Origin: a virus
Direction: 5' to 3' (one strand)
Virus record (IMG/VR): IMGVR_UViG_3300032156_000932
Length of the DNA: 15,752 nucleotides
The notes under the pieces were generated by a model. That model had not been told where the DNA came from, did no database searches, and worked only from the letters and a program-made list of their open reading frames with translations. The position numbers and the translations under genes are program-made. Below, piece by piece: positions 4,967-12,229 of the stretch. Numbering within the stretch: position 1 is the stretch's first letter; each line of letters begins with the position of its first letter.

Positions 4967-4994
4967 ACTATAGCCAGCCACAATAAGAAGTCAA
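4967..4994 (-). promoter_or_regulatory. Sigma70-like promoter P1: cCTCTTGACT, 16-nt spacer, TATAGT
   Basis: On the minus strand, -35 TTGACT sits at 4994..4989 and -10 TATAGT at 4972..4967. The -10 is about 22 nt upstream of the AAGGAG-ATG of the 65-aa gene, so the leader from the predicted TSS is about 15 nt. Confidence 0.6.
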
Positions 4995-5224
4995 GAGGTC
5001 TTTCGACGATCCTTGAGCCGCTCCTGCGGCTTCAACTTCTGGACCAATTCTGAGGGGTCTGGAAGCTCCGCCACGCGGCGCTTGTTGCCGCAGGGCAGGC
5101 ACACCGGGGTCGAGGTCTTCTCGTGCCAGTAGCGTGTTGGGGCCCCGCAGAAGAAGCACCGGCCGCAGATCCAGGAGTCCTCGCCACCCTTCTTCGGGGA
5201 GAGCTGTTCCTTGAGGTGGATCAC
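4991..5224 (-). CDS. Small zinc-ribbon protein, 77 aa (CGRCFFCG...CLPCG), GTG start
   Basis: Two CxxC pairs. Its stop overlaps the -35 of P1. Confidence 0.45.
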   Translation of the reverse strand: MIHLKEQLSPKKGGEDSWICGRCFFCGAPTRYWHEKTSTPVCLPCGNKRRVAELPDPSELVQKLKPQERLKDRRKTS

Positions 5225-5227
5225 CGG

Positions 5228-5812
5228 CTACTCGTGCGCAACCTCTTGCGTCTCGGACACCGGCAGCGTGGGCATGGTGCCCTCCTCGACGGGGTACTCC
5301 TCCTCGTCGAGAACGGGCTCCTCGGACAGCGGCTCCAGCGGGATGCCCTCGGAGGTGAGGCGGGCGTGCAGCTTCGCGGACTCTCTCCGGTACTCCACCG
5401 CCATCGCCGTAGCCAGCTTGACCTTGCTCCGCTTCCTCTCCACGTCGAGCTTGAGGTTCCCGATGTCCTCCTTCAGGCTCTCGATGACCTTGTTGGCGAC
5501 CACGAGCTTGCTCTTCGCCTCGCAGGTCTCCTTCACCGCCAGGTTGCGGATGTCTTCGACTTCGCGAAAGATCTTGTCGTGAGCCTTGATCACCTCGTCC
5601 CGGTCGGACACGATGGACTTCGCCGCCGCCAGCTCGGTCTCGGCCTTCTTCAAGAGGTTGAGAGTGATCGCGTGCAGATCTTTCTCTGCCTCCAGCTGCT
5701 TCAGCGGCACCACCTCCGCGACATCCCCCAGGGTAGCCTTGGGCGAGCCCTCGGACTTGGCAGCGATCACCTTCTCTTCGGCCTTCTCGGTCTTCCCCGT
5801 CTTCTCGTTCAT
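5228..5812 (-). CDS. Coiled-coil, Glu/Lys-rich hypothetical protein, 194 aa
   Basis: GGAGGG RBS lies 5 nt upstream of ATG 5812. Heptad-like, charged composition. Confidence 0.6.
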   Translation of the reverse strand: MNEKTGKTEKAEEKVIAAKSEGSPKATLGDVAEVVPLKQLEAEKDLHAITLNLLKKAETELAAAKSIVSDRDEVIKAHDKIFREVEDIRNLAVKETCEAKSKLVVANKVIESLKEDIGNLKLDVERKRSKVKLATAMAVEYRRESAKLHARLTSEGIPLEPLSEEPVLDEEEYPVEEGTMPTLPVSETQEVAHE

Positions 5813-5859
5813 CAGGTCCCTCCAGAGGTATGTTGTGGCTATAGCAAGCCAGGCTCTTA

Positions 5860-5887
5860 ACTATATAGATGCCGGGAAGAAAGTCAA
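5860..5887 (-). promoter_or_regulatory. Sigma70-like promoter P2: CCCTTGACT, 16-nt spacer, TATAGT
   Basis: On the minus strand, -35 TTGACT sits at 5887..5882 and -10 TATAGT at 5865..5860. It lies immediately downstream of the MPP stop and upstream of the 194-aa gene. It is nearly identical to P1. Confidence 0.6.
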
Positions 5888-5894
5888 GGGCAAA

Positions 5895-6617
5895 TCAACG
5901 AGCGTCGTGCAGATGGATGATGGTGGGGCTGGTCTTGTCCTGGAACAGAGCGCCTGCGCAGTAGAACTGCGTGATGGCTCTCTCCTCGGGCTCCTTCATC
6001 GGGTAGTGGGATCGCTTCTCTTTGTGTTCGTGACCCATGAGCACGTAGTCCGCCTGGCCGAGCACCGTGTCGAAGAACTTCTTGGCGTCCTGGAGACGGC
6101 AGAACCACTCCGCGTAGAAGGGAGTGTGGTGCATGATGACGATGCTGACCATCCGGCTCTTGTACGTCCGCGCGAGGAACTTCTTCAGCTCGCGCCTCTG
6201 CCAGAACCCGACCCTGCCCTGGGAGAAGTCGACGATGCTTCCATGAACCATACAAGTGTCCAGTGCCAGGATCTGCCCGACCACGAACCCGTCGACCTTC
6301 AGCTCGGTGAGGTCGTGGACCTCCAGATCCTCGCAGAGCCGGTACCAACGTCCTGCGGCCTTGGGGTCGTAGAAGCTCCCGAGAAGCCCCAGATCGTGGT
6401 TCCCCGGGCACATGACGATGCGCCCCTTGAACGGCAGGAGCATCTCCAAGGCCTGTGCGTACTGGCACTCCAAGCCGTCGTCGGTGATGTCGCCCGTGAC
6501 GATGAGCTTATCGGTCGAGCCGACGAGCTTTAGAGCCCCGTGCAGCTTTTCGCGGACCGCCTTGTTCTCCCTCGGAAGGGCTTTGATGTGCAGATCGCTG
6601 ACGTGTATGAGACGCAT
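5895..6617 (-). CDS. Calcineurin-like metallophosphoesterase, 240 aa from ATG 6617
   Basis: The full MPP motif set is present: HVSDLH (GDxH-type motif I), GDITDDG, GNHD, MHH and GHEH. AAGGAGG lies 6 nt upstream of ATG 6617. The track's N-terminal extension to 6689 is rejected. Confidence 0.8.
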   Translation of the reverse strand: MRLIHVSDLHIKALPRENKAVREKLHGALKLVGSTDKLIVTGDITDDGLECQYAQALEMLLPFKGRIVMCPGNHDLGLLGSFYDPKAAGRWYRLCEDLEVHDLTELKVDGFVVGQILALDTCMVHGSIVDFSQGRVGFWQRRELKKFLARTYKSRMVSIVIMHHTPFYAEWFCRLQDAKKFFDTVLGQADYVLMGHEHKEKRSHYPMKEPEERAITQFYCAGALFQDKTSPTIIHLHDAR

Positions 6618-6942
6618 TGAGCACCTCCTTGCTCGGAAGAATATCCTCCGGATCGCCGTCGCCCATCGTAACATACTCATGGGACCCATCCGTCTCTTTC
6701 TCGACGGATTTGATCCTGTGGAAGGCCCTTCGTACCTTGGGCAACGCCGCCTTCAAAAGCTCCATCGCTGCGGTAAGGCTACCCACAGGACCCGGCTCAT
6801 GGAGATCGTTCATCCGGTCCCTGGCAGCCCCCAGAATGAGGTCGTACGTTTCCATGTTCGTGATGCAGTTCTTCAGGCCCTTGAGGACCGCGGTACGGAC
6901 CTCACGGTTGGTCGCAGGGGTGTGCTGGTTCTTGCGGTACAT
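6508..6942 (-). CDS. Hypothetical 144-aa protein; the last ~36 codons overlap the MPP gene and look non-coding
   Basis: GC3-rich codons for about 108 aa, then GC3 collapses through the 110-nt overlap with the MPP start. The RBS is weak. Confidence 0.4.
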   Translation of the reverse strand: MYRKNQHTPATNREVRTAVLKGLKNCITNMETYDLILGAARDRMNDLHEPGPVGSLTAAMELLKAALPKVRRAFHRIKSVEKETDGSHEYVTMGDGDPEDILPSKEVLNASHTRQRSAHQSPSEGEQGGPRKAARGSKARRLDR

Positions 6943-11354: not shown

Positions 11355-11401
11355 CTTTTTTCTCCTGTTTTGATAGTGGACTGGTTCACACCCTCGGGCA
11401 G

Positions 11402-11429
11402 AGTCTATACACTATAAACTGATTGTCAA
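11402..11429 (-). promoter_or_regulatory. Candidate promoter P3 upstream of the MVP gene: cCCTCTTGACA, 16-nt spacer, TAGACT
   Basis: It shares the extended -35 CCCTCTTGACA with P4. Its -10 is weaker: TAGACT at a 16-nt spacing, or TATAGA at 14 nt. It lies about 45 nt upstream of the MVP ATG. Confidence 0.4.
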
Positions 11430-11458
11430 GAGGGAAAAACTCTCGGTAGTCTACGCGG

Positions 11459-11533
11459 TCGGGGTGAAAGGATTCGAACCTTCGATCTCTTGCGCCCAGG
11501 GCAAGCGCGGTAGCCAGGCTCCGCCACACCCCG
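11459..11533 (-). tRNA. tRNA-Pro-like, anticodon UGG, 75 nt, CCA not encoded; anticodon loop CCUGGGC has C at position 33
   Basis: The full cloverleaf was drawn by hand on the minus strand. Acceptor CGGGGTG pairs with CACCCCG. D-stem GCGG pairs with CCGC. Anticodon stem CTTGC pairs with GCAAG around loop CCTGGGC. T-arm is GAAGG-TTCGAAT-CCTTT. Discriminator is A. Confidence 0.65.
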
Positions 11534-11795
11534 AAGAAAAACGGCCAACCAGCCCTACACGGCATACCCAGGTCACATCCGTTCACTCTGGACCCAGAGC
11601 CCCTCTTCCACGGGTTCCCGGAAACCGGTCACCCTGTGCAGTGAGACGGAACTGCACAACCTCACCCCTCGGACTGGTCGGCCTGGGGGAGGGGCCCAGA
11701 TCTGCGCTGGACAGGCCCTACTACCGGCTTTCGCCTTGCCCTTCGGCCGGCCGCCGTCTTGTCCCTCCCGGGAACATGTTGCTGCCAACAACATT

Positions 11796-12160
11796 TGGAG
11801 ACGATGGGAATCGAACCCATGTCCAGTAGAGTCGAGCGTTCACTTCGTTACGTGTGTGGTCGCGCTGAAGGTCTCAGAGAGTGCCGCACGACTGCACTCC
11901 CAGGGTCCAGGCTGCTTCTCGGTGCGACCTGTCAAACCGTGGGTTGCTCGTCTCGAATTGCGCCAGCCGTGCGAGTTACGAGCACCTCGCACGTCCGACG
12001 TTCCCTAAGCGGCCCTCTGGAGGGAGGGTACCGCCATCTTCGGAAAGGGGATGACATCTGCATCGGCATTTGTCTGTTGAAAGTCGTTTTAAACCGCTGG
12101 CTTACAAGCGGTACACGCAGTGAGCACCGTCACATCCGCTGTCGAAACCATTACGTCCCC
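11796..12160 (-). ncRNA. ssrA: tmRNA (ssrA-like), about 365 nt, with a candidate tag ORF at 12067..12005 (ADADVIPFPKMAVPSLQRAA, ending in TAG)
   Basis: The minus-strand 5' end GGGGACGTAATGGTTTCGACAGCGG matches the tmRNA 5' consensus GGGGxxGxxxxGGxTTCGAC. The 3' end has a GGAC-ATGGGTTCGATTCCCAT T-arm and acceptor CGTCTCC-A pairing with the 5' GGGGACG. Length is near that of E. coli tmRNA (363 nt). An in-frame ...GCC GCT TAG (AA-stop) lies about 93 nt from the 5' end. Confidence 0.8.
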
Positions 12161-12200
12161 ATGATAGACTACCGAGTTGTCAATGAGCGGAGCAGCTACC

Positions 12201-12229
12201 TATATAGGGCTGGATGAGCAGGATGTCAA
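12201..12229 (-). promoter_or_regulatory. Sigma70-like promoter P4 for the tmRNA: CCCTCTTGACA, 17-nt spacer, TATATA
   Basis: On the minus strand, -35 TTGACA sits at 12229..12224 and -10 TATATA at 12206..12201, 40 nt upstream of the mature tmRNA 5' end. This is consistent with a leader processed by RNase P. Confidence 0.6.

Follow-up and report, generated by a model that had tools for sequence, protein, structure and literature searches.

Every gene in the window analysed here, a 15,752-nt stretch of DNA from an uncultivated jumbo phage (IMG/VR record IMGVR_UViG_3300032156_000932), lies on the minus strand, and several gene boundaries carry sequences that resemble bacterial promoters. This arrangement raises the questions of whether these sequences are functional promoters and, if so, which RNA polymerase reads them. 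A sequence-only reading of the window had listed four such sites, P1 to P4, as host sigma-70/SigA promoters that share a CCTC extension upstream of the −35 element. We propose, at a probability of about 0.8, that these sites and a fifth, P5, are functional primary-sigma (sigma-70/SigA) promoters that form part of a family conserved in an uncultivated phage lineage with genomes of ∼205–212 kb and 60% G+C.

Promoter-like sites at the gene boundaries of the window

P1 to P4 are present exactly as claimed with respect to coordinates, hexamers and spacers, and are located on the minus strand (Table 1). An independent consensus scanner recovered P1, P2 and P3 together with P5, which was absent from the earlier list. 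The scanner missed P4 solely because the −10 hexamer of this site has a final A. The −35 hexamer is TTGACA or TTGACT in all five sites, and the spacer is 16 bp in four of them and 17 bp in the other. The sites had been described as intergenic. All five do mark gene boundaries and lie on the coding strand, but P1, like P5, overlaps the final codons of the ORF preceding it, leaving no clean gap at these two positions.

Table 1. Promoter sites and RNA features of the window
Feature	Coordinates	Strand	Elements or identification	Context
P1	4967..4998	minus	CCTC + TTGACT (4994..4989)-N16-TATAGT (4972..4967)	SD AAGGAG 4955..4950, then ATG 4944 of 65-aa gene
P2	5860..5891	minus	GCCC + TTGACT (5887..5882)-N16-TATAGT (5865..5860)	5' of 194-aa coiled-coil gene, ATG 5812
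P3	11402..11433	minus	CCTC + TTGACA (11429..11424)-N16-TAGACT (11407..11402)	28 nt past tRNA-Pro; 5' of 900-aa MVP-homolog gene, ATG 11354
P4	12201..12233	minus	CCTC + TTGACA (12229..12224)-N17-TATATA (12206..12201)	∼34-nt leader up to tmRNA 5' end at 12160
P5	1391..1422	minus	GGTC + TTGACA (1418..1413)-N16 (spacer end TGGT)-TAGATT (1396..1391)	SD GGAGG 1384..1380, then GTG 1373 of 304-aa phrog_6247 'DNA topoisomerase' gene
tmRNA gene	11796..12160	minus	ARAGORN; Rfam RF00023, 96.8 bits; tag ADADVIPFPKMAVPSLQRAA	First in predicted P4 unit
Structured 148-nt element	11537..11684	minus	13-bp closing stem, then U-run	
tRNA-Pro(UGG)	11457..11533	minus	ARAGORN; Rfam RF00005, 57.1 bits	Last in predicted P4 unit

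The bipartite pattern TTGAC[AT]-N16-17-TA.A.[TA] matched the window five times on the minus strand and never on the plus strand, against a mean of 0.033 matches expected from 2000 dinucleotide shuffles, in which a count of five never arose; the pattern was picked after the sites were known, a circumstance mitigated by the independent PWM test described below. A looser pattern allowing spacers of 15–18 nt also yielded five matches versus 0.16 expected. By contrast, neither TTGAC[AT] nor the octamer CTCTTGAC was enriched by itself in the window, the latter occurring 20 times with at most one mismatch versus 18.7 expected. The signal thus resides in the bipartite arrangement and not in the −35 word.

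The PWM was trained on 24 sites that are non-homologous to the window region. Its five highest-scoring positions in the window were P1 (24.1 bits), P5 (23.9 bits), P4 (18.0 bits), P3 (13.2 bits) and P2 (10.6 bits), and the next best position scored 5.8 bits. In shuffled sequence, the maxima averaged 7.8 bits and the highest was 12.2 bits. P2, the weakest site, is within the range of these maxima, and the case for it is mainly one of conservation and position. No further, weaker promoters above background were found in the window.

Conservation of the sites and a family of related sites

The window was compared to two IMG/VR jumbo-phage contigs of 85–97% nucleotide identity, relatives A and B (records IMGVR_UViG_3300031952_000001 and IMGVR_UViG_3300036761_001580), of which 84.7 kb (∼40%) and 43.7 kb (∼20%), respectively, were examined. 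All five sites are kept in both relatives. Across these comparisons, the hexamers contained no substitutions in 108 positions versus 34 in 146 spacer positions (Fisher p = 1.3e-9). This pattern extends to P2, whose hexamers are conserved next to a spacer diverged at 6 of 16 positions. The P1 core is unchanged in both relatives, but the genes that follow it differ among all three genomes. P3 is kept as an island in relative A, where the MVP gene is absent, and P5 is a 43-nt island (1380..1422) in the same relative, 97.7% identical and with non-homologous flanks on both sides. At P4, the first C of the CCTC (12233) is the precise limit of BLAST homology to both relatives, and the three genomes have unrelated sequences upstream of it. 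Starts and ends of homology often coincide with a promoter edge.

The relatives contain 54 more sites, 32 in relative A and 22 in relative B, bringing the family to 59. All 59 have a TTGACA or TTGACT −35 and a spacer of either 16 or 17 bp; C-36 is invariant, as are T-12, A-11 and A-9. In a 26-site matrix from relative A, T-12 and A-11 were likewise invariant, and strong preferences were observed for T-7 (24/26), C-38 (24/26), T-16 (25/26), G-15 (22/26) and G-14 (22/26); A occupies −7 in P4 and its orthologues (TATATA). The TG at −16/−15, part of a TGGT motif lacking in P2 and P4, is one base out of register from the extended −10 TGn. Within 70 nt downstream, 49 of the 59 sites have an SD and the start codon of an ORF ≥40 aa long, as compared to 13.5% of random positions, and three of the ten sites lacking this context are 5' of a tmRNA. 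The median distance from the −10 to the start codon is 34 nt. Sixteen sites are clustered within 11 kb of relative A in a divergent arrangement, and some members of the family occur near tail-like genes.

These data bear on the alternative that the matches are functionless and arose by chance in A+T-richer intergenic DNA. The lack of enrichment of TTGAC[AT] and CTCTTGAC alone, and a P2 score attainable by shuffled sequence, are compatible with such an origin. However, chance matches would not be expected to exceed expectation ∼150-fold with strict strand specificity, to be free of hexamer substitutions next to spacers that diverged by 23%, or to recur in 54 further copies with a matching downstream gene-start context. 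Together, the enrichment, gene-start context, PWM and footprint results effectively refute this explanation.

A search of the entire IMG/VR for one subtype (class I), CTTGACA-N12-TGGTTACATT, returned 31 exact matches, 24 of them in relatives A and B; the subtype is thus lineage-specific, being almost confined to the phage lineage of the relatives. Among the genomes of 185,579 bacterial species, this subtype had 51 single matches distributed over many phyla, approximately the number expected by chance; no genome contained more than one copy, providing no clue to the host. No cultured relative emerged from sequence searches: a megablast comparison of GenBank phages with the entire window matched only the tRNA, and in tblastn searches the 304-aa protein and the 690-aa protein matched phages of many hosts at <50% identity, which gave no indication of the host. 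Look-ups of exact proteins returned a single 2.1-kb contig, identical to the window. Distant MVP-carrying phages were considered for comparison and rejected as uninformative, having 22–33% G+C and no copy of the motif. The 59-site model can be used to annotate the rest of these genomes.

The polymerase predicted to read the sites

The family resembles the promoters of group-1 sigma factors (E. coli sigma-70/SigA), whose extended consensus is tcTTGACat-N17-TATAAT. Common to both are a perfect TTGAC[A/T] −35, a 16–17-bp spacer, a −10 in which T-12, A-11 and, nearly, T-7 are invariant, and a t/c-C flank at −37/−36, inside the −38..−30 zone of sigma region 4. Many phage sites also share G-14 and a GGG discriminator. 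The phage sites differ from the group-1 consensus in that most spacers are 16 bp long and not 17; the −10 is TAnAnT (TAcATT, TATAGT or TAGAyT), with no instance of TATAAT; the TG preceding it is at −16/−15 (TGGT) rather than −15/−14; and C-36, a weak preference in the consensus, is invariant.

The phage family also lacks an A+T-rich UP element. UP elements are A/T-rich tracts at about −40 to −60. The CCTC flank, for which this role had been suggested, is G+C-rich and at −40..−37, abutting the −35, and the A+T fraction at −61..−42 is 0.46 versus 0.40 genome-wide; on this composition, the flank is not an UP element. The source PMC2412878 gives aaaWWtWttttNNNaaa as the UP element consensus, bound by the alpha-CTD, and tcTTGACat as the extended −35 consensus, and places the contacts of sigma region 4 at −38..−30. 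The CCTC flank corresponds to this known extended −35, within the region 4 contact zone. In the orthologous comparison, the flank had 4 substitutions in 36 positions, which does not differ significantly from the 34 in 146 of the spacers (p = 0.17); among paralogous sites, in contrast, C-36 does not vary. In some predicted folds of read-through RNA, CCTC paired with the downstream SD in the manner of an anti-SD sequence, with no associated energy signal.

The assignment of the sites to the sigma-70/SigA type is supported by the enrichment, strand, position, phylogenetic footprint and 59-site family. We infer the identity of the polymerase, the start sites, and the strength and timing of transcription from these features. 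According to the proposed mechanism, sigma region 4 of the host RNA polymerase holoenzyme would recognize the perfect −35, CTTGAC[A/T], together with its flank, A-40 S C-38 n C-36, and sigma region 2 would recognize the TAnAnT −10, 16–17 bp downstream. Many members additionally have the T-16 G-15 G-14 T-13 motif and a GGG discriminator. Transcription would start ∼7 nt past the −10, yielding a short leader with a strong ribosome-binding site of the GGAGG type at its end.

Alternatively, the promoters could be read by a phage-encoded sigma-70-family factor or a phage-remodelled host holoenzyme, whose specificity would be reflected in the C-36/C-38 flank and TGGT. The rigidity of non-hexamer positions (C-36 in 59/59, C-38 in 24/26 and T-16 in 25/26), the displacement of TG by one base from the canonical TGn and the near-confinement of the subtype to one phage lineage are consistent with such a factor. 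We nonetheless consider it improbable: the hexamers, spacing and tc flank conform to the ordinary group-1 consensus, and the 17-base subtype also occurs singly, and in part orthologously conserved, in bacteria of many phyla, suggesting that it is tolerated by ordinary sigma-A enzymes. The lack of a sigma or RNA polymerase Pfam match in 18 larger proteins (10 from the window and 8 from relative A) is weak evidence in the same direction; the eight proteins of relative A had only weak tape-measure, ATPase and beta-helix matches.

Recognition by the host primary-sigma holoenzyme has a parallel in the early promoters of large lytic phages that use this holoenzyme, such as T4, which are likewise numerous, near-consensus and stereotyped, precede small genes or short operons of mostly unknown function, and are clustered in regions of the genome. 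The T4-type sites have an A/T-rich upstream region, absent from the phage family, whereas the genome studied here is 60% G+C and the sites also occur near tail-like genes. Very probably, the sites represent an ordinary, well-supported way for a phage to use host RNA polymerase, one that does not overturn current understanding. The lineage would then depend on the host primary-sigma holoenzyme and not only on a polymerase of its own, and the consensus would constrain what the host sigma-A must accept. Strong, compact promoters that suit a G+C content of 60% could also find application as parts.

Predicted transcription units and promoter cassettes

The transcription units proposed in the sequence-only reading are plausible in that no above-background site was found between the promoters, but two required revision. 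The P1 block, thought to continue beyond the J-domain gene, would be closed by P5 (1418..1391) before the 304-aa topoisomerase-like gene. The P4 unit would include the tmRNA and tRNA, but be larger than proposed, also containing a conserved, structured 148-nt element between the tmRNA and tRNA-Pro. This element is 99% identical in relative A, has two compensatory pairs in relative B and a fold z of −1.97, and had no match in Rfam. The interval from P4 to tRNA-Pro contained no promoter-like site. The predicted units thus comprise the tmRNA, 148-nt element and tRNA-Pro (P4); the MVP homolog through the metallophosphoesterase gene (P3); the coiled-coil and Zn-ribbon genes (P2); the 65-aa gene through the GDSL lipase gene (P1); and the topoisomerase-like gene (P5). 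No minus-strand terminators were predicted in the window. The five co-directional units would accordingly be stacked without terminators, each promoter adding to read-through from upstream. This predicted map appears to be a reliable account of transcription in this stretch of an uncultivated jumbo phage, in which the tmRNA/tRNA cluster and the major-vault-protein homolog, among others, would have their own promoters.

It is possible, albeit doubtful, that the cassettes (flank, −35, −10, leader and SD) have a compatible second role as linkers for homologous recombination that shuffle small gene cassettes. The precedent is the PeSL (promoter-early stem-loop) cassettes of T4-type phages (PMC2839356, PMC4122927), which likewise extend from an upstream stop codon through the −35 and −10 to the SD, and are repeated genome-wide at junctions where entire small genes distinguish close relatives. 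Of ∼11 insertion or replacement events that separate the window from relative A, ∼5 abut a promoter cassette; P1 is followed by 2, 1 and 0 genes in the three genomes, and the MVP gene lies as an insertion immediately after P3. The end of homology at the P4 edge and the P5 island also fit this role. Moreover, the principal family of dispersed repeats in relative A consists of promoter cassettes, which account for 12 of 20 repeat HSPs and include an identical pair of 57 nt and a 62-nt pair at 93.5% identity. However, indels tend to occur at gene boundaries anyway: with promoters at 5 of ∼26 boundaries, ∼2 of 11 events would be expected to abut one, making the excess modest in a comparison of three genomes, and six events are at promoter-free boundaries. 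Further, the cassettes share a strong sigma-70-like promoter with PeSL, as judged by sequence, but have no stem-loop or terminator component. PeSL-type stem-loops were rejected because the RNA folds of 31 cassettes were no stabler than shuffles (mean z −0.15).

More speculatively still, a 40–70-nt core (stop codon/flank, −35, TGGT, −10, leader and SD) may both drive transcription and act as a homology linker by which small genes, and even the 900-aa vault-protein gene, are gained, lost and swapped in this high-G+C lineage, as a stem-loop-free analogue of the T4 PeSL; C-38, C-36 and T-16 G-15 might then also mark recognition by a phage-encoded factor. Separately, a CCCC...GGGG hairpin spanning the −10 was observed in some class I copies rather than as a general feature.

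Sites and their conservation

The window comprises 15,752 bp at 60.6% G+C, and every credible gene in it lies on the minus strand. Its closest kin are two contigs in IMG/VR, relative A (212 kb) and relative B (206 kb), which share 85–97% nucleotide identity with it and mark it as a fragment of an uncultivated jumbo phage; nucleotide and protein comparison found no cultured relative. The four promoters of the sequence-only reading, P1–P4, are present exactly as written, on the minus strand. A neutral scan for the consensus picked up P1, P2 and P3 plus a fifth site, P5. The −35 word by itself is not enriched in the window; the evidence therefore rests on the bipartite arrangement TTGAC[AT]-N16-17-TA.A.[TA], which occurs five times, always on the coding strand (0.033 expected). 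In 2000 dinucleotide shuffles the count never rose to five, and chance as the source of P1–P5 is excluded.

All five sites are kept in the relatives. Over nine orthologous comparisons, the two hexamers accumulated 0/108 substitutions and the spacers 34/146 (p=1.3e-9). In BLAST alignments with either relative, homology at P4 breaks off precisely at 12233, the first C of CCTC; further upstream the three genomes are mutually unrelated. P5 survives as an island of 43 nt that starts four bases 5′ of the −35 and extends through the SD GGAGG, with non-homologous flanks in relative A. P3 survives in relative A without the vault-protein gene behind it, and the small genes between P1 and the J-domain gene number two, one or none across the three genomes.

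Positions of sites, genes and RNAs in the window and in relative A (L002, a relative A locus)
Feature	Position	Strand	Remark
P1	4967..4998	−	
P2	5860..5891	−	
P3	11402..11433	−	
P4	12201..12233	−	
P5	1418..1391 (site 1391..1422)	−	GGTC-TTGACA-N16-TAGATT, in front of topoisomerase-like gene
tmRNA	11796..12160	−	
tRNA-Pro	11457..11533	−	
148-nt element	11537..11684	−	between tmRNA and tRNA-Pro
tmRNA 5′ leader segment	12165..12176		
tRNA-Pro 3′ trailer segment	11442..11453		
MVP homolog	8652..11354	−	900 aa
Metallophosphoesterase, longest ORF	5895..6689	−	
144-aa ORF	6508..6942		
A+T-rich stretch	7895..8410		
95-aa gene	8098..8385		
Genes right of P4	12248..15566		
Extra cluster segments	L002 1659..2030 and 2290..2970		
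tRNA-Met	L002 2118..2190		
Orthologue of promoter beyond window	relative A 92292		
Class I promoter with hairpin	relative A 114723 (L002 14648)	+	
54-nt tandem repeat	relative A 117817..117976		three units
First class I promoter of cluster	relative A 118067	−	

A probable promoter family of the phage lineage

Walking along the relatives and pattern scanning, which covered 84.7 kb (relative A) and 43.7 kb (relative B), yielded 32 and 22 sites, respectively (~0.2 expected per 85 kb, at the rate from window shuffles). The consensus is A-40 S C-38 n C-36 TTGAC(A/T), a 16-nt (sometimes 17-nt) spacer, T-16 G-15 G-14 T-13, TAcATT, GGG, with C-36 invariant (59/59 sites, window included). A dense divergent cluster at 118–129 kb of relative A holds 16 sites in 11 kb; these highly stereotyped 'class I' sites read TAGCAC-TTGACA-GCC...GGTGGT-TACATT-GGGG, each followed by a small ORF. 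The window promoters form a more dispersed subtype, in which the flank is CCTC, the spacer 16 or 17 nt long and the −10 TATAGT, TATATA or TAGAyT. At 49 of the 59 sites the next 70 nt bring an SD and a start codon with an ORF of 40 aa or more, versus 13.5% of random positions. The tmRNA promoter accounts for three of the other ten sites, and in several more a weaker SD precedes ATG.

Trained solely on 24 relative A sites outside the window-homologous region, a weight matrix ranked the five sites highest in the window (24.1, 23.9, 18.0, 13.2 and 10.6 bits; next best 5.8). Shuffle maxima averaged 7.8 bits, the highest being 12.2. P2 is unconvincing on score alone and is carried by conservation and position.

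The whole of IMG/VR holds 31 matches to the 17-base class I pattern, CTTGACA-N12-TGGTTACATT, and 24 of them are in relatives A and B. Among 185,579 bacterial and archaeal species, one genome each, it gave 51 single matches over many phyla, approximately the chance number; none of these genomes had two matches, and the scan yielded no host clue. In Spirochaetota, Chloroflexota and Myxococcales some matches pair up as conserved orthologues, so ordinary bacterial polymerases probably use class I sites.

One perfect class I promoter of relative A is followed by neither an SD nor an ORF in the next 70 nt; a GGAGCG...CGCTCC hairpin lies downstream, and the promoter possibly serves a long leader or a small RNA. 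A tandem repeat flanks the cluster next to its first class I promoter, and at this edge the (+) units on the side of the window seem to run towards the minus-strand arm.

Probable polymerase and transcription units

To judge by their motifs, P1–P5 have the architecture of group-1 sigma promoters, which, with conservation and family membership, supports the earlier assignment to the sigma70/SigA type. Their 'CCTC' extension matches tcTTGACat, the extended −35 pattern in the literature, where sigma region 4 is reported to contact −38 to −30 (PMC2412878). The proposal that CCTC is an UP element did not hold: it is G+C-rich and adjoins the −35, and −61 to −42 is only 46% A+T versus 40% for the genome. 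From this architecture, and with CCTC as an extended −35, we conclude with a probability of about 0.8 that host primary-sigma holoenzyme would initiate ~7 nt past each −10; the polymerase, the start sites, and the strength and timing of transcription are inferred. On the roughly 40% of relative A and 20% of relative B covered, a reading of the sites by a phage-encoded sigma factor or co-factor is improbable, the rigid C-36/C-38 and an off-register TGG being its only hints. The family is of the phage sigma-70 type, a kind already known.

The cassettes (flank, −35, −10, leader and SD) might also act as recombination linkers, a role compatible with that of promoter, for which the promoter-early stem-loops (PeSLs) of T4 are a precedent (PMC2839356). 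About five of ~11 indel or replacement events adjoin a cassette, and in relative A cassettes make up the main dispersed repeat family, with two copies identical over 57 nt. However, the excess over the gene-boundary expectation is modest and, unlike T4 PeSLs, the cassettes lack the defining stem-loop, and we regard this additional role as doubtful.

A simple scan predicted no minus-strand terminators in the window, which also holds no further promoter sites above background; it thus reads as five stacked co-directional units. As the sequence-only reading had proposed, P4 would drive the tmRNA and tRNA-Pro, to which the 148-nt element between them is now added; P3, the major vault protein (MVP) homolog through the metallophosphoesterase; and P2, the coiled-coil and Zn-ribbon genes. 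The P1 block, previously drawn onward past the J-domain gene, would instead begin with the 65-aa gene and close with the GDSL lipase, leaving the topoisomerase-like gene to P5. Genes right of P4 would be served by a promoter beyond the window, with an orthologue in relative A.

Gene content and the tmRNA/tRNA cluster

Protein genes in the window encode the MVP homolog, metallophosphoesterase, J-domain, DUF2786/DUF7168, GDSL lipase and phrog_6247 'topoisomerase' proteins. The MVP homolog, a counterpart of the eukaryotic protein directly behind P3, matches Pfam MVP_shoulder (1.2e-29) and Vault_3 (1.4e-8); relative B has a copy (98% aa identity) and relative A has none. Homologs of ~40% identity occur at fourteen further IMG/VR loci (L004–L017), all of 22–33% G+C, and the 3300044712 pair looks duplicated. 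Phage MVPs have been described before (preprint 10.1101/2023.11.10.566534). The A+T-rich stretch (47–48% G+C versus 60.6% for the window), which carries the 95-aa gene and is not present in relative A, appears to have been inserted recently, with no promoter of the 59-site family to itself. The longest metallophosphoesterase ORF overlaps the upstream 144-aa ORF; since its Pfam match begins at residue 25 (MRLIHVSD...), the gene probably starts near 6617.

The tmRNA tag, ADADVIPFPKMAVPSLQRAA, is unusual and ends in RAA, not the common LAA (...QREAA in relative A). The 148-nt element is 99% identical to relative A, above its surroundings, and has a 13-bp closing stem (GGCCGACCAGTCC / GGGCTGGTTGGCC) followed by a U-run; two compensatory pairs preserve its internal hairpins in relative B (fold z of the element −1.97). 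It has no Rfam match and is a candidate ncRNA of no known kind or terminator-like element. The tmRNA leader and tRNA-Pro trailer contain a 12-nt perfect complement (CTCGGTAGTCTA / TAGACTACCGAG; 11/12 in relative B, absent in relative A; ~0.02 expected by chance), which could be a processing stem around the whole P4 transcript, or chance. The cluster is an insertion hotspot: relative A carries an HNH-endonuclease-like ORF, a tRNA-Met and a 226-aa ORF not in the window, and relative B has ~610 nt of different sequence at that place.
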